DNA of 25,960 nt from a virus. Within the stretch, counting starts at the first letter, position 1; each line of letters opens with the position of its first letter. Shown here in pieces: positions 1 through 24,697 of the stretch. The translations under genes were made by a program, and so were the position numbers. The notes beneath the pieces are model-generated. The model saw nothing but the letters and a program-made list of their open reading frames with translations. It ran no database searches and had not been told where the DNA came from. Where the stretch lies: UHGV virus genome UHGV-0396296; one strand, written 5' to 3'.

Positions 1-680
1 TTTATGTTTTCGCCATCCACTTTTGCAGATTTTACGTCCATGATGTGCCATTTTCCACGCTCATCTCGTTTCCATTCCGCCAAAACTATGTAACACCCCA
101 ACGCGCCCTTTGCCCTTCCTTCTATACCTGTGGCAACAGCAACTGATTCTTTACCTTCAACCGTTGCTGCGCTCTGGTCGCCGGTGTTTGTTGCTGCGCT
201 CCAGTCGCCGGTGTTTGTCGCTGCGCTCCAGTCGCCGGTGTTTGTCGCTGCGCTCCAGTCGCCGGTGTTTGTCGCTGCGCTCTGGTTGCCGGTGTTTGTC
301 GCTGCGCTCTGGTTGCCGGTGTTTGTCGCTGCGCTCTGGTCGCCGGTGTTATTACTTTTCTCTTTTTTCCAATCCACCCGATTCAGCGTAAATTTTACAA
401 ACGCATCGACTATTCCCTTTATCCCGATTTCGGCGTTGATTTTTATCCGCTTTCCGCAGCGTTTACTATCGCTACTTTCTTCGTCAGCAACATCACTTAG
501 TTCAACCTCACAATATCGGCTATCTGCCGGCGGATAATAATTAAACACATCTATGGGGTTCTCACATGCATGGAAACCGCACTCACATAGTTCTGCACGA
601 TTTTCTTCGTATTCTTTGCCAACCTCATATTGGAAATCACGACACCTCAGGTCTTCATTAAATCCTTTATATGCTTTCAT
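1..680 (-). CDS. Partial CDS (3' end beyond window start): phage protein with conserved N-terminal domain (MKAYKGF...CECGFHACENPIDVFNYY) and 7 tandem nonapeptide repeats TNTGD(W/Q)SAA
   Basis: ATG at 680-678 on the minus strand preceded by GGAGGAAAT, overlapping the upstream stop (ATGA). Hand translation of the minus frame is open from 680 to position 1. Not in the ORF track because it runs off the window. The plus-strand ORFs 110-391 and 130-537 are mirror artefacts of the repeat. Confidence 0.6.
   Translation of the reverse strand, partial: MKAYKGFNEDLRCRDFQYEVGKEYEENRAELCECGFHACENPIDVFNYYPPADSRYCEVELSDVADEESSDSKRCGKRIKINAEIGIKGIVDAFVKFTLNRVDWKKEKSNNTGDQSAATNTGNQSAATNTGNQSAATNTGDWSAATNTGDWSAATNTGDWSAATNTGDQSAATVEGKESVAVATGIEGRAKGALGCYIVLAEWKRDERGKWHIMDVKSAKVDGENI
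165..350. repeat. 27-bp tandem repeat, about 7 copies (gctgcgctc[c/t][a/g]gt[c/t]gccggtgtttgt[c/t]), in frame within the 1-680 CDS
   Basis: Direct reading of the sequence. Unit length is a multiple of 3. Variants change the encoded residue between D/N and W/Q. Confidence 0.9.
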
Positions 681-1057
681 ATTTCCTCCCCGTATTCGCA
701 CCTAAATTCAATATAATCATCTTGTTCATCCATAATTTTTTCGAATGCTTTCGCCTGTTTATACAGCTTTATGAAATCCTCCAGTCTCACAGTCGCTTTC
801 CATTCCTTACCGTTTTTCCGATGGAATACCGCCGGGATTTCGCCCCTTGCGTCTCTCTTGGACTGCTCCATAGCCTTTTCGATGTTTAACGCCTCCACAC
901 GCTTAACCTCGATATGTACTCCCGGCAGCCCCACTACGTCGGCATCGCCATTCGCCCCCGAATATTGCTGCCCGCGTCGTGCATCGTATCCGTATCCCCG
1001 CAGTATCTTGGCGATTTCTCGTTCTCCCTCTGCGCCCTTGCGCCTGCTGTTTGTCAC
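677..1057 (-). CDS. PD-(D/E)xK nuclease, Holliday-junction-resolvase-like (Hjc/RecU-type)
   Basis: ORF of 126 aa. N-terminus MTNSRRKGAEGEREIAKIL and motif D...VHIEVKRVE (D ... E-x-K) are typical of archaeal-type resolvase-like phage proteins. Stop overlaps the downstream start. Confidence 0.55.
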   Translation of the reverse strand: MTNSRRKGAEGEREIAKILRGYGYDARRGQQYSGANGDADVVGLPGVHIEVKRVEALNIEKAMEQSKRDARGEIPAVFHRKNGKEWKATVRLEDFIKLYKQAKAFEKIMDEQDDYIEFRCEYGEEI

Positions 1058-1320: not shown

Positions 1321-1851
1321 TTAAACCGTTTCATCACTACCTCCTAACGCTTTTGTGGCCGATCCCCGTAGCCTGGCTATCTGCTCTTGCAACTTTGCCG
1401 GCAGTGCCGCAGTCTCGTTTTTTCGCTGTGCCTCCTGTTCATACACCATCCGGAAATTCGCCCTGTCCTGCATCGGGTTTTCAGATTCGCATAGCTGTTT
1501 CCACCCCAGCCGTTTCACCACCTTGCGGGTCGTTTCATCCATGCTGGCCAGTGCCGCCTCCTGCTGGTAGTATCCGTATTTACCAACCGCCTTGCGGAAC
1601 TGTTCCCAGCCGTCCGCCCAGCCTCGCGGAGCTTCTACAGTCTGTACTGCCGCCTGTCGTATCTCTGCCGGTGTTGGCGGGAATTTGTTCGTTGACATGT
1701 GCCGTTGTATGGCTATGTTCGCCAGCTCGTATGGCATATCCTCCAGCAGCCTGTACCAAATTTTTACGCTGTCTGCGTCAGGTAGAAAATTCGGCGATGT
1801 ATATACTGCTTTCATGCCTTTTACCAGCACCTTGAACTCATTAAATGTCAT
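1321..1851 (-). CDS. Helicase loader/inhibitor-like protein (SPP1 G39P-like)
   Basis: 176-aa ORF with the KFPPTPAEI motif and a tyrosine-rich N-terminal region, recalled as the G39P-like loader family. Sits directly after the replisome organiser gene. Confidence 0.5.
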   Translation of the reverse strand: MTFNEFKVLVKGMKAVYTSPNFLPDADSVKIWYRLLEDMPYELANIAIQRHMSTNKFPPTPAEIRQAAVQTVEAPRGWADGWEQFRKAVGKYGYYQQEAALASMDETTRKVVKRLGWKQLCESENPMQDRANFRMVYEQEAQRKNETAALPAKLQEQIARLRGSATKALGGSDETV

Positions 1852-2539
1852 CTATCCAGTCTAACCGTCCAGCCTTCTCCTGCGGCGGCTTCTCCTCCTT
1901 TCTCGCCCATGTAAGGATCGTTGCGTAATGGCTCTTATACCGCTTACCCTTGCTTGCCATGTATTGCGATAATCTTTCAATGCGCTCCTGCCAGTCATAT
2001 GGGAATTGCCTTTGCAGTTTTTCCAGTTCTTCCTCCGTCAGGTGTACGTTCTTAAACTCGCCCATGGCGGGCATAATATATCTCTTTTCTTTTTTGTCTT
2101 TCTTGTCTTTCTTTATATTGGCTCCGTCTGTGGCTCTACTTGTGGCTCCGCCTGTGGCTCTACTTGTGGCTCCGCCTGTGGCTTCACCAGTCTCAGCTTC
2201 ATCTTGGTATCTGCTGTAATTTTCAATGGTTATCACGGTTCCGATGCTGGCTCCGTAGGTGGTACTGTCAAATGTCGCCATTTCCAAATCCTCAAGCAGT
2301 TTACAAAACCTCGCCACTTTACCTCTGCCCCAGCCGAATGTTTCAGCCAGTTTGCGCTGCCCTATTATCAGTTGGCCGGGTTTTAAATGAATCGCCTGCC
2401 CCTTTATTACTTCGGTCTTTTCAAATCGACACGCCTTTACCATCAGCCACTCAAAGGCGTGCCAGCGGTCGAACGGCTTTTCGTCAAACAATTCGTTTTC
2501 GACCACTTTTCGGAACAGCTTTATGTACGTCTCTGCCAC
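1841..2539 (-). CDS. Phage replication initiator / replisome organiser (winged-helix N-terminus, DnaD-like C-terminus)
   Basis: 232-aa ORF. Central linker ATGGATSRATGGATSRAT and a Lys-rich KKDKKDKKEK segment are encoded by internal DNA repeats. C-terminal region resembles DnaD-like replisome organiser domains. Confidence 0.65.
   Translation of the reverse strand: MAETYIKLFRKVVENELFDEKPFDRWHAFEWLMVKACRFEKTEVIKGQAIHLKPGQLIIGQRKLAETFGWGRGKVARFCKLLEDLEMATFDSTTYGASIGTVITIENYSRYQDEAETGEATGGATSRATGGATSRATDGANIKKDKKDKKEKRYIMPAMGEFKNVHLTEEELEKLQRQFPYDWQERIERLSQYMASKGKRYKSHYATILTWARKEEKPPQEKAGRLDWIDDI
2080..2188. repeat. AT-rich tract plus 6 direct 12-bp repeats (TGGCTCYNYCTG): candidate iteron-type origin inside the replication initiator gene
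   Basis: Repeats at 2119-2188, immediately preceded by an A/T-rich run at 2080-2118. Phage origins often lie within the initiator gene. Confidence 0.4.
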
Positions 2540-2872: not shown

Positions 2873-3153
2873 AGGTAGTTCCTCCCAAAAATTCTCATAA
2901 AGTCTTCTCTTGTTCCGTGAACTTTTTCAAACGCCTCTTGCCCTTTTTTATGAAGATATTCCATATTTTCTTTGTTGAAATGAACGCCGTTCGGAGGCTC
3001 ATTATGCCAATAATGATTTAAATAAACCCATAGTCCGTATTTTTCCGACAATTTTCTATTGGCTCCTTGGTATAGATGATGTTTTTCCAACCAGTCTGTT
3101 CTGCCGCTTAAATAGCATACCTTTTCAGACTGCATAATACTCTTTGCCATCAC
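2869..3153 (-). CDS. HNH-like nuclease-motif protein (94 aa)
   Basis: Motifs LEKHHL ... GLWVYLNHYWHNEP resemble the HNH beta-beta-alpha core (HH ... N ... H). The canonical Cys pairs are incomplete. Confidence 0.4.
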   Translation of the reverse strand: MMAKSIMQSEKVCYLSGRTDWLEKHHLYQGANRKLSEKYGLWVYLNHYWHNEPPNGVHFNKENMEYLHKKGQEAFEKVHGTREDFMRIFGRNYL

Positions 3154-3703
3154 CTAACACCTCATTTCTATACGTTATTGCACAATTAAGACTTTCAAAA
3201 GTTTTACATATTTCTAAGCTTTTGATGCATACACGGTACATTCCATTCTTTTGGCGGTGTATGTACTTTTCTCCAGTATTCGTTTTTTTACATTTTGTTT
3301 TTGGCTTGCGCATATGTTTTGCCGAATATTTAATATTCTTTGCCTGTGTTGTAATTTCTAAGTTAGAAGCTTTATTATTTAACGTGTCGTAATCAATATG
3401 GTTAATGACTTTATCTTGACCAACACACCCTAAAAACGCTTCTGCCACCAACCTGTGTACGTAGTGATTTTTTTTCACATATAATCCGTTATATTCACGC
3501 CTAAGCCCCACTATTTTATATCCATTTCCATTATCGGTCGGTGTTAATAACTGCCCCTTAATTCGCCTTTCCATGGATTTTCCCCACTGAGTGTTGTTTT
3601 GAGTTATAATTCTGTCAAGAGACCTAACGTTTCCCAAGTTGCTAACCTGATAAAGTCCTTCATATCCCAGTATATCTCGCCATTCTTCCTCAAGCCTTTT
3701 CAT
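3125..3703 (-). CDS. HNH homing endonuclease with NUMOD4-type N-terminal motif
   Basis: 192-aa ORF. WRDILGYEGLYQVSNLGNVRSL is a NUMOD4-like motif, and HRLVAEAFL...INHIDYDTLNN is HNH_3-like. The gene is visibly more AT-rich than its flanks and overlaps both neighbouring genes. Confidence 0.75.
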   Translation of the reverse strand: MKRLEEEWRDILGYEGLYQVSNLGNVRSLDRIITQNNTQWGKSMERRIKGQLLTPTDNGNGYKIVGLRREYNGLYVKKNHYVHRLVAEAFLGCVGQDKVINHIDYDTLNNKASNLEITTQAKNIKYSAKHMRKPKTKCKKTNTGEKYIHRQKNGMYRVCIKSLEICKTFESLNCAITYRNEVLGDGKEYYAV

Positions 3704-4319
3704 CTGCCTCTCCTTTCAAGTCTGCGTAAACCTCCTTGAATCGTTCCACTGTGGTGTCTTTGCCCAGTTTGTAGTCTTTGGACAGTTCAGATGCCTTTAT
3801 GCCCTTCTCGTTTGCCAGTTCCAGCACCTTGCCCCTCCAAATTTCACGCTCTTTTATATCACTTACAACCTCATCCCGGCTCTTTGCGGCGGCTTTCCGT
3901 CTATCCTCGACACTTCCATCAGCTTCGTCCGGCAAATCCTCCCCTGCGTACACATACAGCCCCAGTCCGTGCCTTGCAACAGCTTTTGTCAGGCTCCTTT
4001 GGATAGCTTTGTTCACGTCAAAGCTGGTTACCATGTCCGCTGGGATGGACTTGTTGCGATAGTCCATTACCGGCAAAAACTCTATATGTTCAATTTCGAA
4101 ATCGTCAGTTACAACAGTTACCCCCGTTTTTACCCAACACGTCTTATTGTCAGAAAAGTAGTTCCACTCCAGATCGTTTTGGTAGACGGTATAATAGCTT
4201 CTCGGGTATCGTTTTTTTAGTTCCTTCCAGGCGTTGGCCCACGACAAATACGATAAATCCTTCTTTTTCTCTATCATGCTCCCGCAGTCAACGCTGTTTA
4301 GTTCCTCAAAATAGTTCAT
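3690..4319 (-). CDS. Putative single-strand annealing protein (Rad52/Sak-like, DUF1071-type), uncertain
   Basis: 209-aa ORF with LSYLSWANAW and HGLGLYVYAGEDLP motifs and an acidic/charged C-terminal tail. Family assignment is from memory only. Confidence 0.4.
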   Translation of the reverse strand: MNYFEELNSVDCGSMIEKKKDLSYLSWANAWKELKKRYPRSYYTVYQNDLEWNYFSDNKTCWVKTGVTVVTDDFEIEHIEFLPVMDYRNKSIPADMVTSFDVNKAIQRSLTKAVARHGLGLYVYAGEDLPDEADGSVEDRRKAAAKSRDEVVSDIKEREIWRGKVLELANEKGIKASELSKDYKLGKDTTVERFKEVYADLKGEADEKA

Positions 4320-7782: not shown

Positions 7783-8262
7783 ATGAGTGAATTTAATGAG
7801 AAACCTAAAAAGAAATTTTATAAGCGTTGGTGGTTTTGGCTAATAGTGGCCGTGGTAGTCATCGGCGTAGGTGGTGCCGCCGGGAGCGGCGGTGATGATC
7901 CTGCCGATACAAAAACAGCGCAAACCGAGCAAACAGAAGAAGCGACAGAGGCAACAGAAGCAACGGAAGCCCTCACGACCGGACAAAGAAATGCTCTCGG
8001 CTCCGCAGAGTCTTACCTTTCCGCTATGCCGTTCTCATATTCAGGGCTAATAGAACAGCTTGAATATGAAGGATACTCAACAGAGGACGCTACTTATGCC
8101 GCTGACAATTGTGGTGCAGATTGGAATGAACAAGCTGCGTTATCCGCAGAGGATTATTTGGATATTATGTCTTTTTCGCGCGACGGGTTAATAGAGCAGT
8201 TGGTATATGAAGGCTTTACGCAGGAACAAGCTGAATATGGTGCATCCGCTGTTGGTTATTAA
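7783..8262 (+). CDS. ltp: Ltp-family surface lipoprotein/membrane protein (superinfection-exclusion type)
   Basis: N-terminal TM segment WWFWLIVAVVVIGVGG, TEATEATEATEA linker, and two tandem Ltp repeats (AESYLSAMPFSYSGLIEQLEYEGYS...DNCGADWNEQA and AEDYLDIMSFSRDGLIEQLVYEGFT). RBS AAAGGAG. Confidence 0.75.
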   Translation: MSEFNEKPKKKFYKRWWFWLIVAVVVIGVGGAAGSGGDDPADTKTAQTEQTEEATEATEATEALTTGQRNALGSAESYLSAMPFSYSGLIEQLEYEGYSTEDATYAADNCGADWNEQAALSAEDYLDIMSFSRDGLIEQLVYEGFTQEQAEYGASAVGY

Positions 8263-8595: not shown

Positions 8596-9501
8596 ATGGA
8601 TCAAAAACCATACAAAACAATTGATGAACAAGTTGAAATTTTAAAAGACCGCGGGTTAATCATAAGTGATGAGGATTATGCAAAACGGTGTCTTACTCAA
8701 CTCAATTATTATCGTTTAAGTGGCTATACTTTGACATTACGAAAAAATAATAGCTTTTACAAAAACATAACTTTTGAAAACGTAATGGATATATATAACT
8801 TTGATCGTCAACTTAAACTTTATGTGTTAAATTATCTTGAAGACATCGAAATATCGTTGCGTACTCACATAGGTTATATTTTAGGAAGCATGGATTCAGA
8901 CAAACCAGCGTATCTTAATGCTGGTTGCTATATAAGCGATGCTCATTACAACAGAGTCCTTGAAGAACTGAAGGATGCCCTTGCTGACAGTAAAAATGAA
9001 GCCTTTGTAAAGCACCACCAGACAAAATACCGCGGAAGCCTTCCTTCATGGGTAATGGTCGAAACATTATCGTTCGGAGCGCTTTCAAGACTCTTTTCAT
9101 CGCTTAAGCAAGACATAAAATGTGACATCTGTGATGCTTATTATAACCAAATCCGCCCACAAGTTGTTGAAAATCTTCTAGAAGGTTTAGTTGTTCTTCG
9201 TAATATATGCGCTCATCATTCCCGCATATATAATCGAGGCATCCCAAACACACCTAAGATGTCTAAAGTAGATAATGATTTTTTTATAGATAATGGATAT
9301 GAGCGAAATGAAATAGGAAAAAAATTATTCTTCAGACTCGTAATCATAGACCGATTGATAGAGGATGCTAATTTTTTAAGCAAAATGATATCTGATATAG
9401 ATGCATTGTCTTATAAATATCCTTTTGTTCAACTCAGGCATTATGGTTTTAAAGCAGACTGGAAAAACATGGTTTCAGAAATTAATAAACAATATAAATA
9501 A
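8596..9501 (+). CDS. Abortive infection protein, Abi_2 family (AbiD/AbiF-like)
   Basis: 301-aa ORF. KTIDEQVEILKDRGL, LNYYRLSGYTLTLR, HHQ...LPSWVMVETLSFGALSRLF and LRNICAHHSRIYNRG match recalled hallmarks of Abi_2 proteins. The gene and its upstream region are markedly AT-rich. Confidence 0.8.
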   Translation: MDQKPYKTIDEQVEILKDRGLIISDEDYAKRCLTQLNYYRLSGYTLTLRKNNSFYKNITFENVMDIYNFDRQLKLYVLNYLEDIEISLRTHIGYILGSMDSDKPAYLNAGCYISDAHYNRVLEELKDALADSKNEAFVKHHQTKYRGSLPSWVMVETLSFGALSRLFSSLKQDIKCDICDAYYNQIRPQVVENLLEGLVVLRNICAHHSRIYNRGIPNTPKMSKVDNDFFIDNGYERNEIGKKLFFRLVIIDRLIEDANFLSKMISDIDALSYKYPFVQLRHYGFKADWKNMVSEINKQYK

Positions 9502-9692: not shown

Positions 9693-10877
9693 ATGCCAGG
9701 AACGAAACAGAAACGAGGAACAGACAGCTGGACCCTGCACGTCAGAGCCGGCACTGATTTTAGGGGAAAGCCCATAAGATATACCAAAACAGTACACTGC
9801 AAAAGCGAAGCAGCTGCAGACAGGGAACTCGCCCTGTTTTATGCAGATTGCGTAAACGGCCGGGTCAACAGATCTACACCTATAACAGTAGCAGAGCTTG
9901 CCGACCAGTGGTATGAAGAGTACGTACTGCGGCACTTAAAGGTCAGCGCCCGGCGTGGCATAGATCCCGCCATAAAGATGTGGATAAAGCCACTACTTGG
10001 AAATAAGAAGGTTTCTAAAGTACAGCGCCTCGATGTGCAAAAATGGGTAAATTACGTTTCCGATCCGCAGGAGCGTACGAACAAGAGGGGCGAAAAAGTT
10101 ATAAAGCAGCTCTCCCCTAAGACTGTACGAAATTACTACTCTGCGCTTCGCGGTATGTTTGATTTTGCGGTCGATATGGGGATCATCGAGGACACTCCCT
10201 GTAAAAATATCCGTATGCCGAAAAAGGATCATAAAGAGGCCACCTACTTTTCTATAGAGGAAGTAAATGTCCTTCTAGAAGCCCTGAGCGCCTTACAGAG
10301 CGACGAACTGCGCTACAAGGTAGCGATTTACCTCGGGCTGTTTGGCGGCCTCAGGAAAGGTGAAATAATGGGATTAAACAGAGAGGATATTAACTTTGAG
10401 CGAGGCGAAATAGCAATCCGGCGTACAAGGATGATAAAACCGAAGGAAGGCGTCTACGAAGACACGCCCAAGACGGATAAATCCATAAGGACGGTCGCCC
10501 TACCTCCGGAGGTTATGGCAGAGATCCTGTGCCTGATCGCGCAACAAAAGGAGCAGAAACTGCAGCTTCAGAACCAGTACCATGACTCCCCTGCCCTGCT
10601 CCGTAACGACCACGGGGACCCACTGTACCCGCAGGTGCTGCAGAGGTGGTTTACCCGATTCCTGGAGAAAAATGGCTTACCTCACGCTGGCCTGCATTCT
10701 CTAAGACACACACACGCCTCAATGCTCGTATATCTTGGTACGGATAAAATGCAGGTCAGCTCCAGACTGGGTCACTCTCAGCTATCGACTACGCTAAATA
10801 TTTACACGCACTTATTTGAAAACGCCGACAAAAAAATAGCGGAAGATCTGTCATCGAACTTCCTAAAAGCTCGCTAG
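9693..10877 (+). CDS. int: Tyrosine site-specific integrase (phage integrase family)
   Basis: 394-aa ORF. C-terminal catalytic signature LFGGLRKGE...HSLRHTHASMLV...LGHSQLSTTLNIYTHL (R, H-x-x-R, Y). N-terminal SAM-like region. Confidence 0.9.
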   Translation: MPGTKQKRGTDSWTLHVRAGTDFRGKPIRYTKTVHCKSEAAADRELALFYADCVNGRVNRSTPITVAELADQWYEEYVLRHLKVSARRGIDPAIKMWIKPLLGNKKVSKVQRLDVQKWVNYVSDPQERTNKRGEKVIKQLSPKTVRNYYSALRGMFDFAVDMGIIEDTPCKNIRMPKKDHKEATYFSIEEVNVLLEALSALQSDELRYKVAIYLGLFGGLRKGEIMGLNREDINFERGEIAIRRTRMIKPKEGVYEDTPKTDKSIRTVALPPEVMAEILCLIAQQKEQKLQLQNQYHDSPALLRNDHGDPLYPQVLQRWFTRFLEKNGLPHAGLHSLRHTHASMLVYLGTDKMQVSSRLGHSQLSTTLNIYTHLFENADKKIAEDLSSNFLKAR

Positions 10878-11100
10878 TTGTTGTCATCATTGTTGTCATT
10901 TTGGCGAAATATGCCGAAATGTTGCGAAACGCGTTGAACGCTCAAAGCATTGAAATTTAAACGATTTGAATGATTTTGAAAATCGCCGAAATACCCTCAG
11001 AACCGATTCGAGTCCCGTGTCCTCCGCCAGCGAAGCCCTGTAATTCCAACGGTTGCAGGGCTTTTCATTTCCGTTTGTTGTCATTTTGTTGTCAATTTGA
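10877..11100. other. Candidate attP region: flanking direct repeats TTGTTGTCATTTTG, CGAAAT/TTGAA short repeats, and a tRNA-3'-end-like core
   Basis: Direct repeats at 10877-10904 and 11074-11099. Sequence TTCGAGTCCCGTGTCCTCCGCCA (11007-11029) resembles a T-loop, acceptor 3' strand and CCA. Integrase and lysis genes converge here. Confidence 0.35.
11034..11065 (+). terminator. Hairpin plus T-run (AGCCCTG...CAGGGCT TTTT) downstream of int
   Basis: 7-bp GC-rich stem followed by TTTT, read directly. Confidence 0.4.
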
Positions 11101-11140
11101 TTTTTACTGTTATTGCAATCGAAAAAACAATTCTGTATAA

Positions 11141-11172
11141 TAAAAAAAGAGCGGTGGCAAGTCCGCCCTCTT
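11141..11172 (-). terminator. Intrinsic terminator after the small minus-strand ORF
   Basis: Minus strand reads AGAGGGCGG-loop-CCGCTCT followed by TTTTTTT. Confidence 0.45.
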
Positions 11173-11189
11173 ATGTGTGTGCCTGTCGA

Positions 11190-11333
11190 TTATTCGGCAG
11201 GTTTTTCCTTTTTTGCCATCTCCCTAACGTCTTCGATAGCCTTCTTTACTTCGTCCATATCCTTACAGGCTGCGAATTTATCGGCTACCAAATTAAGTAT
11301 CACTTCCATCTGCTTATCCGTCATATTCTCCAC
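11190..11333 (-). CDS. Small hypothetical protein (about 47 aa; ...MTDKQMEVILNLVADKFAACKDMDEVKKAIEDVREMAKKEKPAE)
   Basis: Hand-translated. Below the ORF track length cutoff. AAGGAGG RBS 5 nt before in-frame GTG 11333 (ATG at 11324). Followed by a terminator. Confidence 0.35.
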   Translation of the reverse strand: MENMTDKQMEVILNLVADKFAACKDMDEVKKAIEDVREMAKKEKPAE

Positions 11334-11393
11334 AGCGCCCTCCTTTCTCCGCTTGCCCGGTTATTACCGTCCGGTTTCCCTTTCGGTAATTAT

Positions 11394-11422
11394 AATATAC
11401 ACTATTTTTTATATTTTGTCAA
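11394..11422 (-). promoter_or_regulatory. Near-consensus promoter (TTGACA-N17-TATATT) for the small ORF
   Basis: Read on the minus strand. Spacer is similar to those of the two promoters at 11707-11805. Confidence 0.4.
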
Positions 11423-11464
11423 TGTGTTTTTATATATTATTTTATATTTTTTATACTTTTTCGT

Positions 11465-11683
11465 TTATATTATAGGCTCGCCCGTTTCTTTGTCGATGAA
11501 TTGTATTCTCAGCTCTGCGTCGAATGCCTCCGCAATTTTTTCCAATTCAGACACCTTAAACGTGTTCCGTTTGTATTTATTGTTTAAATTCTGCGGCGTT
11601 TGTCCTGTACGCCGAGCAAGTTCCGCTTCCGACATATTTCCTCTTTTAACCCTACACAGATTTATATATTCTCTGACATTCAT
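11465..11683 (-). CDS. XRE-family HTH regulator (72 aa)
   Basis: MSEAELARRTGQTPQNLNNKYKRNTF is an HTH. GGAGGT RBS 6 nt before the ATG. Confidence 0.6.
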   Translation of the reverse strand: MNVREYINLCRVKRGNMSEAELARRTGQTPQNLNNKYKRNTFKVSELEKIAEAFDAELRIQFIDKETGEPII

Positions 11684-11706
11684 ATGCTGACCTCCTTCCT
11701 CTTTTG

Positions 11707-11735
11707 ATTATACACTATATTTTATAATATGTCAA
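11707..11735 (-). promoter_or_regulatory. Consensus promoter TTGACA-N17-TATAAT driving the HTH gene
   Basis: Minus strand -35 at 11730-11735 and -10 at 11707-11712. Confidence 0.5.
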
Positions 11736-11776
11736 AAAAAGAATTTAAATAATATAAAATATTTTATAAAAAACCG

Positions 11777-11805
11777 TTGACAGAATATAAAATTACGTGT
11801 ATAAT
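11777..11805 (+). promoter_or_regulatory. Consensus promoter TTGACA-N17-TATAAT driving the small acidic ORF
   Basis: Plus strand -35 at 11777-11782 and -10 at 11800-11805. Divergent from the promoter at 11707-11735. Confidence 0.5.
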
Positions 11806-11928
11806 ATAATCACAAGGTGAGATAAGGAGGCAATACCATCTCAGTAATGCACTGGGAACAGGTGCAAAAAGAGTTGACACTATAAATAATATATGGGATA
11901 TTGTAAAAAACAAGAGGAGGATAAAAAA

Positions 11929-12162
11929 ATGAAAAAGATGTTTTTAGAAAGTAACGGCTATAACATGATAGGTTTTATATTCGAAGATAATAAAATGGTG
12001 GCATTCGATTGCGAAACATTAGAAGACGCAAAGAATATGGACTGCTCGGGCGTGGAAGGCTGCAAGAGCGCAGAAGAAGCCGCTGTGGACTGCGATACCG
12101 AAGTTTATCCGTTTATTGAAGATGAGTGGGAAAACGTTACATTTATAGAGGAAATGGAATAG
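11929..12162 (+). CDS. Small acidic Cys-containing protein (77 aa), hypothetical
   Basis: ATG 11929 lies 8 nt after GAGGAGG. The track start at 11893 has no RBS. Protein is rich in D/E. Confidence 0.5.
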   Translation: MKKMFLESNGYNMIGFIFEDNKMVAFDCETLEDAKNMDCSGVEGCKSAEEAAVDCDTEVYPFIEDEWENVTFIEEME

Positions 12163-12203
12163 CATAAAAAATCCCCGGCCTTCGCCGGGGACGCTCTATT
12201 TTA
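12163..12203. terminator. Bidirectional terminator (CCCCGGC-CTTC-GCCGGGG hairpin with A-run upstream and T-rich downstream)
   Basis: Read directly, between convergent genes. Confidence 0.55.
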
Positions 12204-12543
12204 TATATCCATCTTTGCCCACATAGTAGGGATTCCATTTTGTGCGAACCTTTACAATGGGTAATTCTTTGCATTTTTCATATATCTCTGTCCCTGTTCC
12301 GTTTCCACCAAGTCCGTGATAGCCCTGGTAGATTTCTGTAAGGGTTTCCATTTCTTCAAACGTTATTTGATCGGTTTCGATATAGAATTGGCCGTATCTG
12401 AACAGACGATCATGCCCGTTCGCCCGAACGGCTATTGTCAAGGCCCTAAATCGTCGTATCACCCATGCCAGGGTGCCAGCCGCAAAACTGGCAACCCCCG
12501 CACAAAATATCTCTATCCAATTTTCCAGTATACTTTCCCACAT
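12196..12543 (-). CDS. Membrane protein appended to the lysis cassette (N-terminal TM helix), function unknown
   Basis: ORF directly follows the endolysin stop. Hydrophobic segment WIEIFCAGVASFAAGTLAWVI. Start is either GTG 12552 or ATG 12543. Confidence 0.45.
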   Translation of the reverse strand: MWESILENWIEIFCAGVASFAAGTLAWVIRRFRALTIAVRANGHDRLFRYGQFYIETDQITFEEMETLTEIYQGYHGLGGNGTGTEIYEKCKELPIVKVRTKWNPYYVGKDGYIK

Positions 12544-12552
12544 AGGCGACAC

Positions 12553-13296
12553 CTACACATTTATATGTACAGCATTACCCATACCCGTAGTATTGGCATA
12601 TGAATAGGCAGCGCCCAGATCGTATGCCTTGGCTACTACCTGTTTCCTTCCGTCCGCTGTATCACAGATGCCAGGAATGTAGATGTCGGCAGCCCTGCCC
12701 TTCATGTGGGTGGAATTAGATGCCCCACCTACCTGTTTGTTTCTCGTGGCACATCTCTGTCCAGATGTAATAGTTATTGGTTTCCCATAATATGCACGCA
12801 GATTTTCCAGCAGATTGAGCAGCTTAGATGACGTATCTCCCGCCGGATATCCGTTGCAATATTTACCGCCACACCCGCACTTGAACTCTGATTTTGCAAA
12901 ATGCGCCGAAGAACCGCCGGAAGCTGTGCCGGCAGAACCGGAAGAACCGGAACCGCTGCGCAGCGCAGCCCACGTTGCCTGTCCAGCGCATCCGTCGGCT
13001 GTCAGGCCCAGCTTTTTCTGTACGGTCTTTATAGCTGCTGCCGTCTTCTGCCCCAGAACGCCATCGACGGTCAGCCCCGCGCCGTATTTATTTAACAGCG
13101 TCTGCAACTCCTTCGTTACCGATACAGCCTTCGCATCTGTCTTAGCTCCCCAAATGCCATCTACCGACAGGCCATAGCCATTTTGGAATTTCTTTGTAGC
13201 CGCCTTTGTCTGGGCGCCCTCTATGCCATCCAGTGCGCCTGTATAATAACCATAGTTATATTTTAGAAAATACTGTCTGTATAAAACCGATATCAT
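12553..13296 (-). CDS. Endolysin: two peptidoglycan-binding repeats plus C-terminal peptidase M15 (D-Ala-D-Ala carboxypeptidase-like) domain
   Basis: Start ATG 13296 overlaps the holin stop and follows a GGAGA RBS. PG_binding-like repeats, GSGSSGSAG linker, and SGQRCATRNKQVGGASNSTHMKGRAADIYI...NAVHINV. The track ORF extends upstream in-frame but overlaps the holin. Confidence 0.8.
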   Translation of the reverse strand: MISVLYRQYFLKYNYGYYTGALDGIEGAQTKAATKKFQNGYGLSVDGIWGAKTDAKAVSVTKELQTLLNKYGAGLTVDGVLGQKTAAAIKTVQKKLGLTADGCAGQATWAALRSGSGSSGSAGTASGGSSAHFAKSEFKCGCGGKYCNGYPAGDTSSKLLNLLENLRAYYGKPITITSGQRCATRNKQVGGASNSTHMKGRAADIYIPGICDTADGRKQVVAKAYDLGAAYSYANTTGMGNAVHINV

Positions 13297-13514
13297 TACT
13301 CTACGTCTCCTTCCTGCAATTCCGGCAGGCTGACAATACTGTTCAACAGACTCAGCACGCCGGACAGTATCGACGCCGATACTACCATTTTCCAATCCAC
13401 CGCCGCAAATACCGCAGCCGTTCCTATAGTTGCGATGGCCGTCTGCGCTACCGTGCGGATAGCACGCATACCGGCCTTCTTTATCCACGTCTTAAATTTC
13501 TCCATGTCGTTCAC
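13296..13514 (-). CDS. Holin (small two-TM protein)
   Basis: 72 aa with two hydrophobic segments (AIRTVAQTAIATIGTAAVFAAV and MVVSASILSGVLSLLNSIV) and a charged C-terminus. Immediately upstream of the endolysin. Confidence 0.7.
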   Translation of the reverse strand: MNDMEKFKTWIKKAGMRAIRTVAQTAIATIGTAAVFAAVDWKMVVSASILSGVLSLLNSIVSLPELQEGDVE

Positions 13515-13519
13515 TCCTT

Positions 13520-13810
13520 TCAGTTCAGTACTTTGTCATGTCTTGGGTATTCGTAATACACTTCATTTCCGTTTCCCGGCAGGATTATGGTCCCCGCCTT
13601 CAGGTTCATATCGCCCGCCGTTATATCCTCGTGCGTTTGGATAACCTGGTTTATAGAATCCAATTTTATCTGCGCCGATCCATCTGTATACACATAAATT
13701 TCGTAGGCCGCGGGCTCTGGATTTTTCGGCATAGCAGACAAAACAAAATACGTCGTGCAGGCTATTATCCCAGCCAGTACGACGCATATTGCTATTATGT
13801 ATTTTTTCAT
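13520..13810 (-). CDS. Small secreted/membrane-anchored protein (signal-peptide-like N-terminus MKKYIIAICVVLAGIIAC)
   Basis: Start moved to the internal ATG (MKKY) at 13810, which overlaps the upstream stop. Confidence 0.4.
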   Translation of the reverse strand: MKKYIIAICVVLAGIIACTTYFVLSAMPKNPEPAAYEIYVYTDGSAQIKLDSINQVIQTHEDITAGDMNLKAGTIILPGNGNEVYYEYPRHDKVLN

Positions 13811-14241
13811 GCGGTGTATTCCTCCCAGCCTGCCGGGTATGCATCCGGCGACCACACATTACCGTCTATTGTGGATATGTACAGCGTACCGTTATAGTTT
13901 ACGATGTCACCTGTGTTGTAGGCATCATGCGCGCCCGTGGGCTGTGTCCATATCGGATATCCGCTATCGTCTAGCCCTATAGGAGTGTATAACGCCGGTG
14001 TGCCATCTGGCGTCCAATCTGCTTGGCTCGTATGCGCCTGCACAACGCGGTACAGCTGCGGTTCGCCTACGCTGTTCTCGCCGTAGGTTATCAGGTCGTC
14101 TACGGCATACGCTACGCCTACTGCATAGGCAGGATATACCGTCGCTATCTCCATGGCCTGTTCGTCCGTCAGTCCTGCCGCGAACATCTGTATTGCCTTT
14201 CGTAGCTGCTCCGCCGCCTGCATTCTATTCATTCGTTTCAC
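13807..14241 (-). CDS. Protein with C-terminal carbohydrate-binding-like module (CBM5/12-like W...GD.V.YNG.LY...W pattern)
   Basis: 144-aa ORF. The segment YNTGDIVNYNGTLYISTIDGNVWSPDAYPAGW resembles chitin/carbohydrate-binding domain spacing. Confidence 0.4.
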   Translation of the reverse strand: MKRMNRMQAAEQLRKAIQMFAAGLTDEQAMEIATVYPAYAVGVAYAVDDLITYGENSVGEPQLYRVVQAHTSQADWTPDGTPALYTPIGLDDSGYPIWTQPTGAHDAYNTGDIVNYNGTLYISTIDGNVWSPDAYPAGWEEYTA

Positions 14242-14593
14242 CCCCGTCCGTTGCTGTTATGCCCAGCAGGGCATTTAATACGGCATCTGTTCCGCTATTT
14301 TCGACATTTGTTACTCGTTCTTCGATTGTTTTGCCTTCTTTGGCTGTGTACGGTTTTTCTTCCAGATCCGCTATTCGCTGTCGTGCAAAATCACGGTAGG
14401 TCAGTTCTTCGACACAATCCTCTGTGTGTATGGCTCCCTCTGTTAGTTTGTTTATTACATCATTTGTCTGTATTAGAAACGTCTTGTAGAAATTTATTTC
14501 TGTTGGCACATCGTCCGCAAAGCTCGCCTTAAAATCTTCCAGTGTCTGCATTTCATATTTTTCTAATAGCTCTGTAGGTATCATCACTTCCAC
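14225..14593 (-). CDS. Hypothetical tail-region protein (122 aa)
   Basis: ORF in the structural operon. No motif recognised. Confidence 0.45.
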   Translation of the reverse strand: MEVMIPTELLEKYEMQTLEDFKASFADDVPTEINFYKTFLIQTNDVINKLTEGAIHTEDCVEELTYRDFARQRIADLEEKPYTAKEGKTIEERVTNVENSGTDAVLNALLGITATDGGETNE

Positions 14594-15060
14594 CGTCCTC
14601 TCACTTCATGCCAGAATGTGCCGGCACCGCCGTCTTGGTTAGATATATATAGTGCTTCCAGTCCGTTCATAGATAGTTCCTTTACGCTGCCCCATGATAT
14701 TCCTGTACCCCAGTCGCAATCTACAGACGCAAAATCAACGGATGTGAAAACCCCGGATGGCAATGTTTGGGTATAATTTCGATAATAAAATCCATTCACC
14801 GTCCCAGTCACTCCAAAATTAGATGATGTTGTCTGTTTGAACGCTTCGGCTCTACCGCTGTCCCATTTTCGCCATATCCATCCGTTTGTTGTCCCCTGGT
14901 CTACTATCCAGTCATCTACGCCCCAATTATTTAGTGCATCAGCCCCTGTCGTTGCGCCGGTGCCCCCTTTGTTTGTTGGAATAATCGGCAATCTGCTTAC
15001 CGGTATTTGCGCGGTAGACATTTCCAGTAACGCTTGTAACGCATTGTCTATTACGCTCAT
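14584..15060 (-). CDS. Tail fiber / receptor-binding-like protein carrying a GGTGATT repeat motif
   Basis: RBS AGGAAAGGAGAG before ATG 15060. Motif IPTNKGGTGATTGADALNNWG is shared with the upstream paralogue. Confidence 0.5.
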   Translation of the reverse strand: MSVIDNALQALLEMSTAQIPVSRLPIIPTNKGGTGATTGADALNNWGVDDWIVDQGTTNGWIWRKWDSGRAEAFKQTTSSNFGVTGTVNGFYYRNYTQTLPSGVFTSVDFASVDCDWGTGISWGSVKELSMNGLEALYISNQDGGAGTFWHEVRGRWK

Positions 15061-15487
15061 CTTCTCTCCTTTCCTGCTCTATCGGATATCCCGCATCGGC
15101 AAACATGTTTATCGTTTCCTGCGATATATCCACTCCTAAATTTACACGGGCTTGGGCGGCTGTCGTCGCACCGGTCCCGCCCTTTGCTACCGTAATCGTC
15201 GGCAGCCTGTTTATAGACATCGTGCCGCTGGTTATATCCGACGCAGAATGTGTGTGTTCCTCGTCGGCCGCTCCGATATTTTCCGGCGTGATGCCCAAAT
15301 TAGTACGGGCGTTTGCCGCACTGGTAGCTCCGGTGCCGCCTCGCGTTATCGGTAGCGTTCCAGATGTTATATTGGCGGCGCTGTGGTTGTGGCTTGCAGA
15401 GGCGGCTCCGATGTTGGCCGGTGTCGCCCAGTCCATTATTTTTTCCACCAGGCGCTGCACACCCGATAAATCTAAAAATTTGGCCAT
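14939..15487 (-). CDS. Tail fiber-like protein with two H-x-HSA...ITSGT...GGTGAT...AR.NLG repeats and C-terminal ISQETINMFADAGYPI motif
   Basis: Start placed at ATG 15487 (MAKFLDLSGVQRLVEKI, an N-terminal motif similar to the upstream gene). The 3' end overlaps the next gene by about 120 nt. Confidence 0.5.
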   Translation of the reverse strand: MAKFLDLSGVQRLVEKIMDWATPANIGAASASHNHSAANITSGTLPITRGGTGATSAANARTNLGITPENIGAADEEHTHSASDITSGTMSINRLPTITVAKGGTGATTAAQARVNLGVDISQETINMFADAGYPIEQERREDERNRQCVTSVTGNVYRANTGKQIADYSNKQRGHRRNDRG

Positions 15488-15496
15488 GGCTACCAC

Positions 15497-16114
15497 CTAC
15501 GAGAACATCGCGTCTATTTCTGTAGTGGTAATCGCCACCAAATCCGTCTTGCTCCAGTATCCGGACAGATCTACCGCTGTTGTACCTATCTGCTCCCAGG
15601 CGCTATTTATCCAGATGTACTCGTTGTACACGTTCTGACCGCTTCCGCCCGAGGACACCAGGTAGACTTTGCCTGTCTCTCCTGCGGATGGAAGAGATGC
15701 CACTACTTCAAACTCAAGCCCAGTTATGTCGCCAATACTTGACGCTATAGCTGCTTGCACAAATGCCGTTGTGGCTATTTGTGTATTGTTGGTATCTGTT
15801 CCTGCGGTCGGCGCCGTGGGTGTACCGGTAAACGCAGGACTTGCCAATGGTGCTTTACTTGCCAATCCCGGCACCGTTACATTGCCACTTGCATCCACGG
15901 AAATATCGCTTCCGGACTTTACGCCGCCCAGGGCTCCTGAAGTAGCTGCTGGCAGTGTATAATTTTGCAAGCTTTCGAGCTTAGATTTTTCCTCGTTTGT
16001 AAAATCATTTGCGGACAAACCTTTTCCTTCCTCTGTATCCACTTTTCCGGCCAGCTCCGCCTGGATTTTGCCGACTAGATACGTCGCCCCCGCTTTGTCT
16101 AAATACTCAGCCAT
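15497..16114 (-). CDS. Tail fiber protein
   Basis: 205-aa ORF. N-terminal LSANDFTNEEKSKLESL and C-terminal KVYLVSSGGSGQNVYNEYIWINSAWEQIG are typical tail-fiber motifs. Confidence 0.6.
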   Translation of the reverse strand: MAEYLDKAGATYLVGKIQAELAGKVDTEEGKGLSANDFTNEEKSKLESLQNYTLPAATSGALGGVKSGSDISVDASGNVTVPGLASKAPLASPAFTGTPTAPTAGTDTNNTQIATTAFVQAAIASSIGDITGLEFEVVASLPSAGETGKVYLVSSGGSGQNVYNEYIWINSAWEQIGTTAVDLSGYWSKTDLVAITTTEIDAMFS

Positions 16115-16131
16115 GTCTTCTCTCCTTTCTT

Positions 16132-16410
16132 TTAACTAAAAAGCGACGCCAGATATTCCAGACTTATGTTGTCTGCTTCTGCCACCGCTCCAACTTCTCC
16201 GGCGTTATATGCCGGTTTATTCGCTTCTTTAGCCCAGCCCGGTACGGTTGGGTCTAGCTCGTTTATGTTACCTATTATTGTTCGCTCGTCCAACGTGGGG
16301 AGGTTTTGTAATTTCTCATAATCGTCCGTGGTCTCATAGTATATCTCTTTTCCGTCCGTCAGGTCCATATCTTCAGTTACTGTCAGGTTCTGGATTTTCA
16401 GTTCCACCAT
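16132..16410 (-). CDS. Hypothetical tail/baseplate protein (92 aa)
   Basis: ORF in the tail operon. Overlaps the upstream gene by 38 nt in another frame. Confidence 0.4.
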   Translation of the reverse strand: MVELKIQNLTVTEDMDLTDGKEIYYETTDDYEKLQNLPTLDERTIIGNINELDPTVPGWAKEANKPAYNAGEVGAVAEADNISLEYLASLFS

Positions 16411-16711
16411 CCGGAATCACTCCCTCCTTCAGTATCGCCTCTACCGGCACCGTGACGATGTTGCTGGCGTAGGCGGTATTGTTCGTAGACAATACACGCA
16501 GCTGCATGGCAACATCCATCTTGGCTGTCAGGGATAGCGTTTCCTCCTGCGTCAATGTTGCCGATATGACTTCGCCTTCTATGGAAACATCTGCCTCCGT
16601 TTTTTCTATAACCACGCCCTGCTGCTCTAATGTCAGGTACAGGTTTTGTATTTCTATTTTAGACAGCCCGGTAACGGTTATCTGTAGGGTGGGTGTTGTA
16701 CCTCGTCTCAC
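16373..16711 (-). CDS. BppU N-terminal-domain-like baseplate protein
   Basis: GTG start after a GGGAGG RBS. MRRGTTPTLQITVTG...IQNLYLTLEQQG...ISATLTQEETLSL resembles the BppU_N domain. Confidence 0.5.
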   Translation of the reverse strand: MRRGTTPTLQITVTGLSKIEIQNLYLTLEQQGVVIEKTEADVSIEGEVISATLTQEETLSLTAKMDVAMQLRVLSTNNTAYASNIVTVPVEAILKEGVIPDGGTENPEPDSN

Positions 16712-16724
16712 GCGATCACCTCCC

Positions 16725-17267
16725 CTAGTCTGTTATCGGGTAGCCGGCATCCTCGAACATGTTTATGGTTTCTTGGGATATCGGCACAGTGTCAAACACA
16801 GGTGTTACGCTCGTCAGCGTTATGTTGTTTATCAATACCTGAAACATAGGTAAATCAACAGTGTTATCGCCATCGTCAATATTTCCCGATGTGTAGGTCG
16901 GCACCGAAGGGGACCCCGTTGTTGGCGTTCCCTGTATAACCACCCAGGCAATACTCTCTACAGCGGTCTCTGCAGCCTTGGTGTACCTCGCCACAACTAG
17001 GTCTATCCGGTTTTCGCCCTGATTCCCATTGTTTATCGTTATTTCATCATATGACCCCGGCTGCACCCAAAACGCCCGGCCCTGGAGGACTCCAATTCCA
17101 CTTCGTATCCTAACCTCGTTATTGCTCTGTATCTGTGCCTGGAATCCTTCGGTAACCGGGTCTATCAACGCCCCGCTTTCGCTGCCAGTTAAAAGGCCAC
17201 GGCTCAGCGCCGCAAACTGCGCTGCGGTCACATGGGGCGACCCTTTATATCCTGTTATTAATTCCAT
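16725..17267 (-). CDS. Tail/baseplate protein ending in ISQETINMFEDAGYPI motif
   Basis: 180-aa ORF. The C-terminal 16 residues are near-identical to a motif in the gene at 14939-15487. Confidence 0.5.
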   Translation of the reverse strand: MELITGYKGSPHVTAAQFAALSRGLLTGSESGALIDPVTEGFQAQIQSNNEVRIRSGIGVLQGRAFWVQPGSYDEITINNGNQGENRIDLVVARYTKAAETAVESIAWVVIQGTPTTGSPSVPTYTSGNIDDGDNTVDLPMFQVLINNITLTSVTPVFDTVPISQETINMFEDAGYPITD

Positions 17268-17279
17268 ACATCTTCCTTT

Positions 17280-18281
17280 CTACGCTTCAGCGCCATCGTC
17301 ACCTTCAAGCTCATAGTCTTTACTTATTACGCCGTCCTCTTCGGTGTATATTTTGTTTTCTACAGGCTTTGCCATGTACATTCCCGTCACATAGTCTCTG
17401 CCGCCCACAATATCACCGATGTCTACGTCTATATCCAGGGCTTCGACATTCATGTTAAACTCCTGCATATCCATCAACTCCTGCAATTTTTCAATTCCCT
17501 TTTCCTCCAACTCGTCAGCTTCGGCATTGGAAAAATCATACGTTTCGGCTCGTTCATCGACCCCCACATAATACTGCGTAGCTCCGATTGTCCCATTTTG
17601 CTGCACGTATAGGTGTATGACCGTTCTGTCAATGCCCTCGCCTTTTCCCAGGCAAATCAGATGGTTTATACCGTTCCGCTTTTCGTGGAACGTAAAATTT
17701 AGCTGGCAATCCTGAGAAAGCTCAATGGTGTTCGACTGGTCTACTATGGGCTGAGCCGAAAGCTCAATATATGTTGGCAATCCACCATCTTGCTGTATGG
17801 CTCGTATCTGCAACTTATAATCAACACTTTTTAGCATTTTGACTATCCCTGCCCGCAGGGTCGCATACCTGTCAAACTGGTAATTGCTAACGGATACGCC
17901 AGAACTCTCATTAGAAACCACAAAAAGCGAGCCTAAACCCGCTTCCGCTACCAAGTCCGCTATTACGCTGTTCAACTCTCCGGATACCGTCTTATAGGCC
18001 TGTCCTGCTGGCGGCTCGATGATTTTCTTCTCCAGCACGTTACGCCATGTGAATCCTTCTATTTTTATATCCCCTTCGGCGGTCTCGGACGTTTTTTCAC
18101 CAATAATACCGCCATATTCGGTATTGGGAATATAGACCCAGTTGCCATATGCCAGTTCATTGCTATAATCATCCGCGACTATCGTCATTTCAAAAGTACG
18201 GTCATTGTTCAGGTCTATGTCGATTTTCTTGTAATTTAATCGCCTAAGCTCTATCCCTGTAGGGTCGGAAAGTATTACCAT
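17280..18281 (-). CDS. Tail protein (Tal/baseplate-hub-like, short)
   Basis: 333-aa ORF immediately downstream of the Dit-like gene. Position-based call. Confidence 0.5.
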   Translation of the reverse strand: MVILSDPTGIELRRLNYKKIDIDLNNDRTFEMTIVADDYSNELAYGNWVYIPNTEYGGIIGEKTSETAEGDIKIEGFTWRNVLEKKIIEPPAGQAYKTVSGELNSVIADLVAEAGLGSLFVVSNESSGVSVSNYQFDRYATLRAGIVKMLKSVDYKLQIRAIQQDGGLPTYIELSAQPIVDQSNTIELSQDCQLNFTFHEKRNGINHLICLGKGEGIDRTVIHLYVQQNGTIGATQYYVGVDERAETYDFSNAEADELEEKGIEKLQELMDMQEFNMNVEALDIDVDIGDIVGGRDYVTGMYMAKPVENKIYTEEDGVISKDYELEGDDGAEA

Positions 18282-19141: not shown

Positions 19142-19143
19142 GC

Positions 19144-22455: not shown

Positions 22456-22465
22456 GCTTTACCTC

Positions 22466-23242: not shown

Positions 23243-23256
23243 ATTTTAGCTCCTTT

Positions 23257-23682: not shown

Positions 23683-23686
23683 ATGC

Positions 23687-24040: not shown

Positions 24041-24043
24041 CGC

Positions 24044-24684: not shown

Positions 24685-24697
24685 GTATGAGCCTCCT

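Follow-up and report, generated by a model that had tools for sequence, protein, structure and literature searches.

What kind of protein is encoded by a run of near-identical 27-bp units at the left end of UHGV virus genome UHGV-0396296, and why do two codons of that unit vary while the rest stay fixed? The DNA analysed is a stretch of 25,960 nucleotides, here called the window, and the gene in question is a member of the DUF7666 family that leaves the window at its left edge. Its tandem array changes in length between isolates and evolves in concert, a mixture of residues being maintained at two codons, and the gene lies in an early operon. The explanation that best covers these data, which we hold as a whole with about even confidence, is a cytoplasmic early accessory protein built as a head, a stalk and a cap, with a concertedly evolving array and a role that would be directed at the host. 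A sequence-only reading of this DNA had described the array and the conserved domain in front of it, and what it saw and how it read it proved real and right overall, apart from the corrections given below.

Window positions 1–680 of the minus strand hold a single open frame of 226 codons that begins at the ATG at 680–678 and runs off the left edge. Translation of the remaining two minus-strand frames of this segment gives stops throughout, and the plus-strand open reading frames at 110–391 and 130–537 are antisense artefacts of the repeat. The features of the gene are the following.

1–680, minus strand: DUF7666-family gene, codons 1–226 of an expected 243–244 (open frame, Pfam, PHROG, relatives).
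685–689, minus strand: Shine-Dalgarno-like GGAGG, 4 nucleotides 5′ of the ATG (direct sequence reading).
677–680, minus strand: ATGA, in which the stop of the upstream RusA-like gene (677–1057) overlaps the start of the DUF7666 gene (sequence, list of open reading frames, phrog_244).
366–680, minus strand: N-terminal globular domain, residues 1–105, with the Pfam DUF7666 match at residues 1–92.
165–353, minus strand: seven in-frame 27-bp tandem units, (N/T)NTG(D/N)(Q/W)SAA, predicted rungs of a beta-roll (Tandem Repeats Finder, codon layout).
84–164, minus strand: three degenerate units, TVEGKESVA, VATGIEGRA and KGALGCYIV, in the same nine-residue register (codon layout, periodicity of the model).
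1–83, minus strand: start of the conserved C-terminal capping domain (…LAEWKRDERGKWHIMDVKSAKVDGENI), cut at the window edge (alignment with full-length relatives, P0017 model).

Because of the ATGA overlap, the gene is placed in one operon with the RusA-like gene, and the overlap suggests translational coupling between the two. Two relatives that are 93–94% identical to the 226 residues (P0017 and P0023) are 243 residues long and end in ...KANTFYMLENGKFKEVE, and in a 42-kb contig (L001) with 99.4% identity over the 3′ part of the gene the stop lies 18 codons past the window edge. The gene is therefore intact and nearly complete, not a pseudogene, and by this comparison about 17–18 of its codons lie to the left of the window. 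It had been called a partial gene, which is right in that it leaves the window but is to be corrected in that it is almost whole; the frame does not close just beyond the edge, as it would in a pseudogene, and relatives run on to a normal stop. The first 27 residues of the C-terminal cap align with those of relatives, though the edge cuts the cap. The protein is small, at about 244 residues, and direct reading found no signal peptide or hydrophobic segment in it.

Tandem Repeats Finder places the array at 166–350 (period 27, 6.9 copies, 95% matches), with a score of 307 that makes it by far the strongest array in the window (the runner-up scores 123). Laid out in codons over 165–353, the units read, in order, NNTGDQSAA, TNTGNQSAA twice, TNTGDWSAA three times and TNTGDQSAA. 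Differences are limited to the opening codon of the first unit (AAT vs ACA), codon 5 (GAC/AAC), codon 6 (CAG/TGG) and a silent change in codon 9 (GCG/GCA). The seven in-frame repeats reported at this end are thus where they were said to be, and the unit given for them, TNTGD(W/Q)SAA, serves as the general form, except that the first begins with N rather than T. The claim that variation is confined to two codons (D/N and W/Q) holds in the window array and in 55 arrays from phages.

The N-terminal domain, linked in the sequence-only reading with uncharacterised proteins of Firmicutes phages, is indeed conserved: residues 1–92 match positions 1–94 of the 95 in Pfam DUF7666 (PF24703) with 118 bits against a cut-off of 27 (E = 2.6e-34), and the whole protein matches PHROG 4433 (function unknown) at E = 4e-77. 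The family is large. A word-indexed search gave at least 8,000 homologues, and phmmer with the 105-residue head against 1.84 billion cluster representatives (clusters at 50% identity) returned 4,405 clusters at E <= 1e-3, with 2,088 at E <= 1e-10. The tie to Firmicutes does not stand. Among cultured phages, tblastn found members in phages of Salmonella (ES18 gp53, SEN22, S107, S135), Pseudomonas, Vibrio, Acinetobacter, Ralstonia and Bacteroides as well as Blautia and Clostridioides, and more distant homologues in 115 Rheinheimera phage genomes. The window protein has the usual architecture of the family, a head followed by 8- or 9-residue G-x-x-(S/G) repeats and a C-terminal G-C-(W/Y)-I-V-L-A-E-W cap. 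The named example, ES18 gp53, shares its N-terminal domain, nonapeptide, C-terminal cap and early-operon location and has the identical TNTG(D/N/Y)(Q/W)SAA unit; the two differ only in copy number (11 vs 7), host clade and about 50% sequence divergence. Other branches carry 8- or 9-residue units of differing sequence (SATGDYSAV, IGSSGDAAK, ASAGDSGS, ALTGGDRS), all of which retain a glycine, then D/N/Y, then a variable residue. The window gene is an ordinary member of a catalogued, unstudied family and not a new kind of element.

Depositors have labelled homologues 'c-type lectin precursor', 'pentapeptide', 'putative ATPase domain-containing protein' and 'putative ADP-ribosyltransferase'. Identity as a C-type lectin, the label on the SEN22 and S107 records, was rejected for want of a Lectin_C Pfam match, and similarities of the repeats to E. 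coli YdhT and collagen-like SclB in NCBIfam lie far below cut-off and are taken as compositional. In Vibrio phage 1.185.O (MG592551.1, 27925–28674) the homologous array is annotated as four spacers of clustered regularly interspaced short palindromic repeats (CRISPR), which looks like a false call on a coding repeat. A CRISPR array was likewise rejected here, as there are no unique spacers of about 30 bp and the units are contiguous and differ at only 2–4 nucleotides. Megablast of the first 3 kb of the window against cultured phages gave no match, a PDB sequence search with the protein and the N-domain profile gave only chance matches (Lsm4, malate dehydrogenase), and the searched literature held nothing relevant on 'nonapeptide repeat' with 'prophage' or on ES18 gp53.

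Long and near-perfect arrays had been expected to make the length of the protein vary between isolates, and copy number is indeed far from invariant across relatives. The 120 closest proteins carry 4–20 perfect units, with lengths stepping by 9 residues (a looser pattern counts 5–21 in the same proteins and includes one or two degenerate units after the array). L001 has 12 units against 7 in the window, with flanks 97.6% (5′) and 99.4% (3′) identical, and a second related contig (L002) has 4, with a 3′ part 96% identical and a 5′ flank only 75% identical. It must be held against such figures that metagenomic copy numbers come from short-read assemblies, which are unreliable across the array, and because short-read assemblies handle it badly, complete genomes of cultured phages were compared. 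Salmonella phages with heads 91–94% identical have 11 units in ES18, 22 in SEN22 and 4 in S107/S135, and Pseudomonas phage YA3 has 28, so that the overall span is 4 to 28 units. By these comparisons length variation between isolates is real, while the exact figure of seven in the window is provisional. That this figure, and some of the differences from metagenomic relatives, are artefacts of assembly is unlikely, yet the suspicion has grounds: a typical short read does not span 189 bp of near-identical units, of 80 IMG/VR loci at least 25 break off within the DUF7666 gene, the best matches to the head domain are mostly 'partial' proteins at contig ends, and many database entries are frame-shifted translations through the array. 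The differences among complete cultured genomes speak against it, and it would in any case touch the exact number only and not the nature of the feature.

Short-read assemblers evidently break at this array systematically. Contigs L019, L021, L024–L028, L030, L032, L033 and others end inside it, and proteins P0271–P0384 include many partial ones. Several carrier contigs of about 77–79 kb resemble two concatenated copies of a ~39-kb genome. A sizeable share of the cluster representatives are wrong-frame translations through the array; P0121, P0124, P0127, P0158, P0180, P0183 and P0198 read through it in the wrong frame (...HQHRLPVS..., ...PERRHEHG...), by assembly indels or real frameshifts, and the annotation of Salmonella phage Emek has 'similar to ES18 gp53 with frameshift'. 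In several Pseudomonas phage records (MK511039, MK511047, MK511048, MK511050, PP067092 and PP740689) the DUF7666 gene stands at the end of the linear record, in one under 'attR'; these same records give 2–11 separate tblastn places, and their ends probably lie within the array.

How such an array evolves can be read from the distribution of diversity within the unit. Heterozygosity was calculated for each of the 27 positions in 55 TNTG-type arrays (from the window, L001–L004 and IMG/VR loci), with the following values.

Nucleotide 13: 0.585 within arrays, 0.56 between array consensus units.
Nucleotide 16: 0.479 within arrays, 0.49 between array consensus units.
Nucleotide 17: 0.297 within arrays, 0.46 between array consensus units.
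Nucleotide 18: 0.19 within arrays, 0.31 between array consensus units.
Synonymous third positions: 0.01–0.09 within arrays, 0.38–0.70 between array consensus units.

There are 41 distinct consensus units, the serine codon switches between AGY and TCN from array to array, and arrays of cultured phages show the same heterozygosity pattern. Because synonymous sites are uniform within arrays yet free between them, the pattern is, on these comparisons, that of concerted evolution with the peptide under purifying selection, in which gain, loss and exchange of whole units outrun the accumulation of point mutations. At codons 5 and 6, within-array diversity lies 6- to 50-fold above that of synonymous sites. 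Neutral variants would be homogenised equally everywhere, and the excess at these two codons therefore indicates a force that upholds the mixture, either selection or, less probably, a local mutational bias. Position 5 is D in 40%, N in 33% and Y in 23%, and position 6 is Q in 34%, R in 34%, W in 17% and Y in 8%. Codons seen at position 6 are CAG, CGG, TGG, TAC, TGC and CAC, and never TAG, the stop that the same base changes would give. In arrays from 118 family proteins the residues of the dipeptide are not combined at random: YW is almost absent (0.05 times expectation), and YQ (1.6 times) and NW (1.55 times) are over-represented. Along an array the units follow one another in what is effectively random order, with identity at lags 1–6 of 0.17–0.21 against 0.189 when shuffled. 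An 18-residue, two-unit periodicity of the variable dipeptides, which separate selection on the two edges of a roll would produce, is not general, and some family members do have 18-residue super-repeats.

These figures bear on two explanations at the level of DNA. The first is that the units act as iterons of an origin or as another protein-binding array, for which it can be said that the array lies directly downstream of replication and recombination genes and that origins within genes are known, as with the lambda-like ori inside gene 59 of ES18. Such a role is highly improbable because the peptide is conserved and the DNA is not: third positions reach 0.38–0.70 among the 41 consensus units and the serine codon changes family. 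The array is also always in frame, and the annotated origin of ES18 lies elsewhere than its array. The second is that the variable codons are made by a diversity-generating retroelement or another targeted mutator. The concentration of variation in two codons, one of them NAC, and the C-type lectin label on the SEN22 and S107 records would suit this, but we regard it as extremely improbable. No reverse transcriptase was found among the 40 window open reading frames scanned or among the Pfam-labelled genes of L001–L004, and the variation is not adenine-specific, with the A at nucleotide 14 nearly invariant, C/T at nucleotide 16 and G/C at nucleotide 18. The absence of a Lectin_C match counts here as well, and there is no separate template repeat, every copy lying inside the coding array. 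DUF7666 resembles the variable proteins of these retroelements, and contingency or variable-number tandem repeat genes, in having diversity on a few exposed codons of a scaffold of ligand-binding type and in changing fast between close relatives. It differs from the former in that its diversity comes from the shuffling and turnover of tandem cassettes, without reverse transcriptase, template repeat or adenine bias.

Concerted evolution with two maintained codons leaves the question of what the mixture is for. The main rival to a contact surface is that the repeat block is a passive spacer or stability element of neutral length, whose residue mix is kept for folding or solubility only, so that like charges or bulky aromatics do not stack along the ladder and there is no recognition surface. 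This we consider rather unlikely, although much of what is seen would suit it. Between 4 and 28 repeats are tolerated, the order of dipeptides within arrays is indistinguishable from random, the avoidance of YW is what steric constraint would give, and the variable residues lie, in the model, in turns. It also tells against a binding surface that the excess diversity at the two codons could stem from the demands of structure, for instance balanced charge or solubility. On the other side, within-array diversity is 6 to 50 times that of synonymous sites and so actively maintained, and the same restricted alphabet recurs in phages of Firmicutes and Proteobacteria and across repeat motifs that share G-[D/N/Y]-x, which points to a function beyond tolerance.

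The structural side of the preferred explanation comes from a full-length AlphaFold model of P0017, which is 94% identical and has 7 units; the mean predicted local distance difference test score (pLDDT) is 63. The model has one five-residue strand (AATNT) in every nine residues, and a four-residue G-x-x-S turn holds the variable pair. Strand periodicity continues through the degenerate units (pLDDT 75–82), and the C-terminal cap is better predicted (74–90). The repeat part itself reaches only 59–67, which is a point against the stalk. An architecture of head, stalk and cap with the variable residues in turns is nevertheless well supported as a prediction. The predicted stalk can be likened to the RTX beta-roll, which also has a nine-residue period and two units per coil. 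The RTX consensus GGxGxDxUx is absent from the unit TNTG(D/N)xSAA and no HemolysinCabind match appears even at E <= 10, and because both are lacking the DUF7666 repeats are placed outside the RTX family. With pentapeptide-repeat proteins, whose label is found on distant Rheinheimera homologues, the protein would share a repeat-built beta-solenoid and a small cytoplasmic form. Membership of that group was rejected, since the period is 9 (8 in some relatives) and not 5 and there is neither an A(D/N)LXX motif nor a Pentapeptide Pfam match.

The head was poorly predicted in the first full-length model (pLDDT 33–63) and became confident only with a deeper alignment of the N-domain; its last helix (residues 86–101) joins it to the repeats. 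Across 148 diverse heads, K5, G6, C13, G35 and P42 are invariant, C32, H37, C39, Y49 and P51 are conserved at 98–99%, and D44, Y48, D71 and K73 at 93–96%; E58 is conserved at 81%, and residue 60 (E60) is acidic in 92%. The predicted fold tentatively resembles that of ADP-ribosyltransferases (ARTs), and H37, Y49 and E58 could form an H-Y-E-like set. Two weak pointers to ADP-ribose chemistry come from relatives. The homologues of Acinetobacter phages fLi-Aba02 and fEg-Aba01 are deposited as 'putative ADP-ribosyltransferase', and one protein (P0216) has in front of its head, at residues 1–132, an extra domain of the A1S_2505 family (NCBIfam NF049995, E = 1.4e-42) with sub-threshold similarity to macro or ADP-ribose-binding domains (Pfam Macro E = 0.004; PDB 2fg1 and 2afc, E about 0.04).

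A good deal weighs against an ART. Known ARTs have a far longer H-to-E spacing than the 21 residues between H37 and E58, some homologues carry V or I in place of E58, and C13/C32/H37/C39 has more the look of a zinc site than of a catalytic triad. Foldseek against the PDB gave nothing at E < 1, a Pfam scan of 146 members at E <= 10 brought up no ART family, and hhalign of the N-domain profile against Arr-3 (a query sequence checked to be 100% identical to arr-3) was negative, with a probability of 0.1. A search of the Aravind-lab survey of viral NAD/ADP-ribose systems with a set of chosen terms found no mention of DUF7666. Compared with the ART superfamily (diphtheria-toxin/PARP/Arr/Tpt1-like, including the anti-CRISPR AcrIF11), DUF7666 thus shows no relation at the level of sequence and none by Foldseek; its head has an extra near-invariant Cys3His set and a shorter H-to-E spacing, and ART activity is only putative.

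Where the gene lies in the genome speaks to where and when the protein would act. The window is a temperate siphophage with the following genes.

Within 7,660 to 1, minus strand: excisionase/HTH-like (helix-turn-helix) gene, in the minus-strand block.
3690–4319, minus strand: Sak/Erf-type annealing protein.
3125–3703, minus strand: HNH endonuclease.
1841–2539, minus strand: DnaD-like replisome organiser.
1321–1851, minus strand: G39P-like loader.
677–1057, minus strand: RusA-like gene (phrog_244).
7783–8262, plus strand: superinfection-exclusion-like gene.
8596–9501, plus strand: abortive-infection-like gene (phrog_2158).
9693–10877, plus strand: integrase.
25,867 to 12,196, minus strand: head, tail, tape-measure and lysis genes.

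The DUF7666 gene comes after the Sak, HNH, DnaD-like, loader and RusA genes on the same strand, and in close relatives it is followed by small open reading frames, a single-stranded DNA-binding protein, a sigma-like regulator and terminase. In ES18 and S107/S135 it directly follows the gene for the antiterminator N; in SEN22 an exclusion gene on the opposite strand is all that stands between the two. In YA3 and fLi-Aba02 it lies in an operon beside CI, and in an Anaerovorax prophage directly after an antirepressor. In every context compared it is an early-operon gene. In lambdoid phages with the gene order of lambda and P22, the slot after N is usually occupied by dispensable anti-restriction or exclusion-escape genes.

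This context bears on whether the protein could be an adhesin or fibre, secreted or carried on the virion, of RTX or trimeric-autotransporter type. We consider it very unlikely. The gene sits in an early operon far from the structural genes at 12,196–25,867, the N-terminus has neither a signal peptide nor a hydrophobic segment, the GGxGxD motif is absent, neither HemolysinCabind nor Hep_Hag is matched in Pfam, and the protein is small. RTX proteins are secreted by the type I route, whereas the DUF7666 protein would, by its place in an early operon without secretion genes, be an intracellular early phage protein.

Some further features of the window stand apart from the gene. The DnaD-like gene (1841–2539, minus strand) contains an in-frame tandem repeat at 2119–2183 (also 2083–2114) of 24 bp x 2.7 with 97% matches. 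The copies, ATGGATSR at the protein level, fall in a low-complexity linker with a KKDKKDKKEK stretch behind it, and the repeat could make this linker variable in length or represent the iterons of an origin inside an initiator gene. The HNH gene (3125–3703, of NUMOD4/HNH_3 type in the L001 homologue) lies between the Sak/Erf and replication genes and overlaps both neighbours, and it is present in L001 and absent at the same place in L002, as expected of a mobile insertion of homing type. The superinfection-exclusion-like, abortive-infection-like and integrase genes form a plus-strand module for lysogeny and defence. Between the integrase and the endolysin end of the late operon (the 12196–13488 region) there is about 1.3 kb of unassigned open reading frames (11097–12162). 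Because the late genes adjoin the integrase and not the opposite end of a prophage, the window looks as if it shows the phage excised or circular, in which case attP would fall within 10,880–12,190. Rfam and tRNA scans of the window were empty.

The mechanism that would join these observations begins with a 105-residue head bearing a near-invariant Cys/Cys/His/Cys set and a predicted ART-resembling fold. In the stalk each nonapeptide would form one beta-strand (AATNT) and one turn (G-x-x-S), two units making one coil of a beta-roll, so that the only variable residues of the stalk would sit in exposed turns, and a small C-terminal cap would close the protein. Unequal recombination or slippage, perhaps aided by the phage's own annealing protein, would add, remove and shuffle whole 27-bp units; this turnover would keep synonymous sites uniform within an array and alter the length of the stalk quickly (4 to 28 units), and selection would keep the mix of D/N/Y at position 5 and of Q/R/W/Y/C at position 6. 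The protein may then act on a host component soon after infection or induction, in host takeover or anti-defence, with the head as its active or ligand-binding part, possibly in chemistry of nicotinamide adenine dinucleotide (NAD+) or ADP-ribose, and the ladder of variable turns as a fast-evolving contact surface. Two points run against this host-directed role: the literature searched held no paper on DUF7666 or PF24703 and no experiment on the family, and PADLOC, whose library is of defence and not anti-defence proteins, gave no match. As had been said, the function of the family is unknown in the sense that no member has a recorded one, but it can be narrowed to an early-operon accessory protein with a predicted beta-roll stalk and an ADP-ribosyltransferase-like head.

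A bolder proposal, which we think quite improbable, is that DUF7666 proteins are widespread, unrecognised early effectors of phages, in which a beta-roll stalk directs a minimal ART-like head to host targets such as defence proteins, and tandem-cassette recombination continually re-assorts the two exposed residues of each rung. If true, recombination would here do for an intracellular anti-host protein what diversity-generating retroelements do for their variable proteins. ADP-ribosylation has been reported in roughly 3% of siphophages (PMC9503650), and if the head is enzymatic it would be far commoner in them than that.

In practical terms, the array breaks short-read assemblies, yields frame-shifted database proteins and has entered records under CRISPR, C-type lectin and pentapeptide labels. 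For the family, DUF7666 belongs to the commoner early genes of temperate phages that lack annotation, and phages of gut Clostridia are among its carriers. It gains a concrete and testable description: a zinc-type or ART-like head, a beta-roll that far outpaces the rest of the gene in how its length and turn residues evolve, and a fixed place in the early operon. What makes it interesting is how abundant the family is, how cleanly the array records its evolution and the tentative likeness of the head to ARTs, and each of these can be tested in ES18, YA3 or Blautia phage Montmirail.

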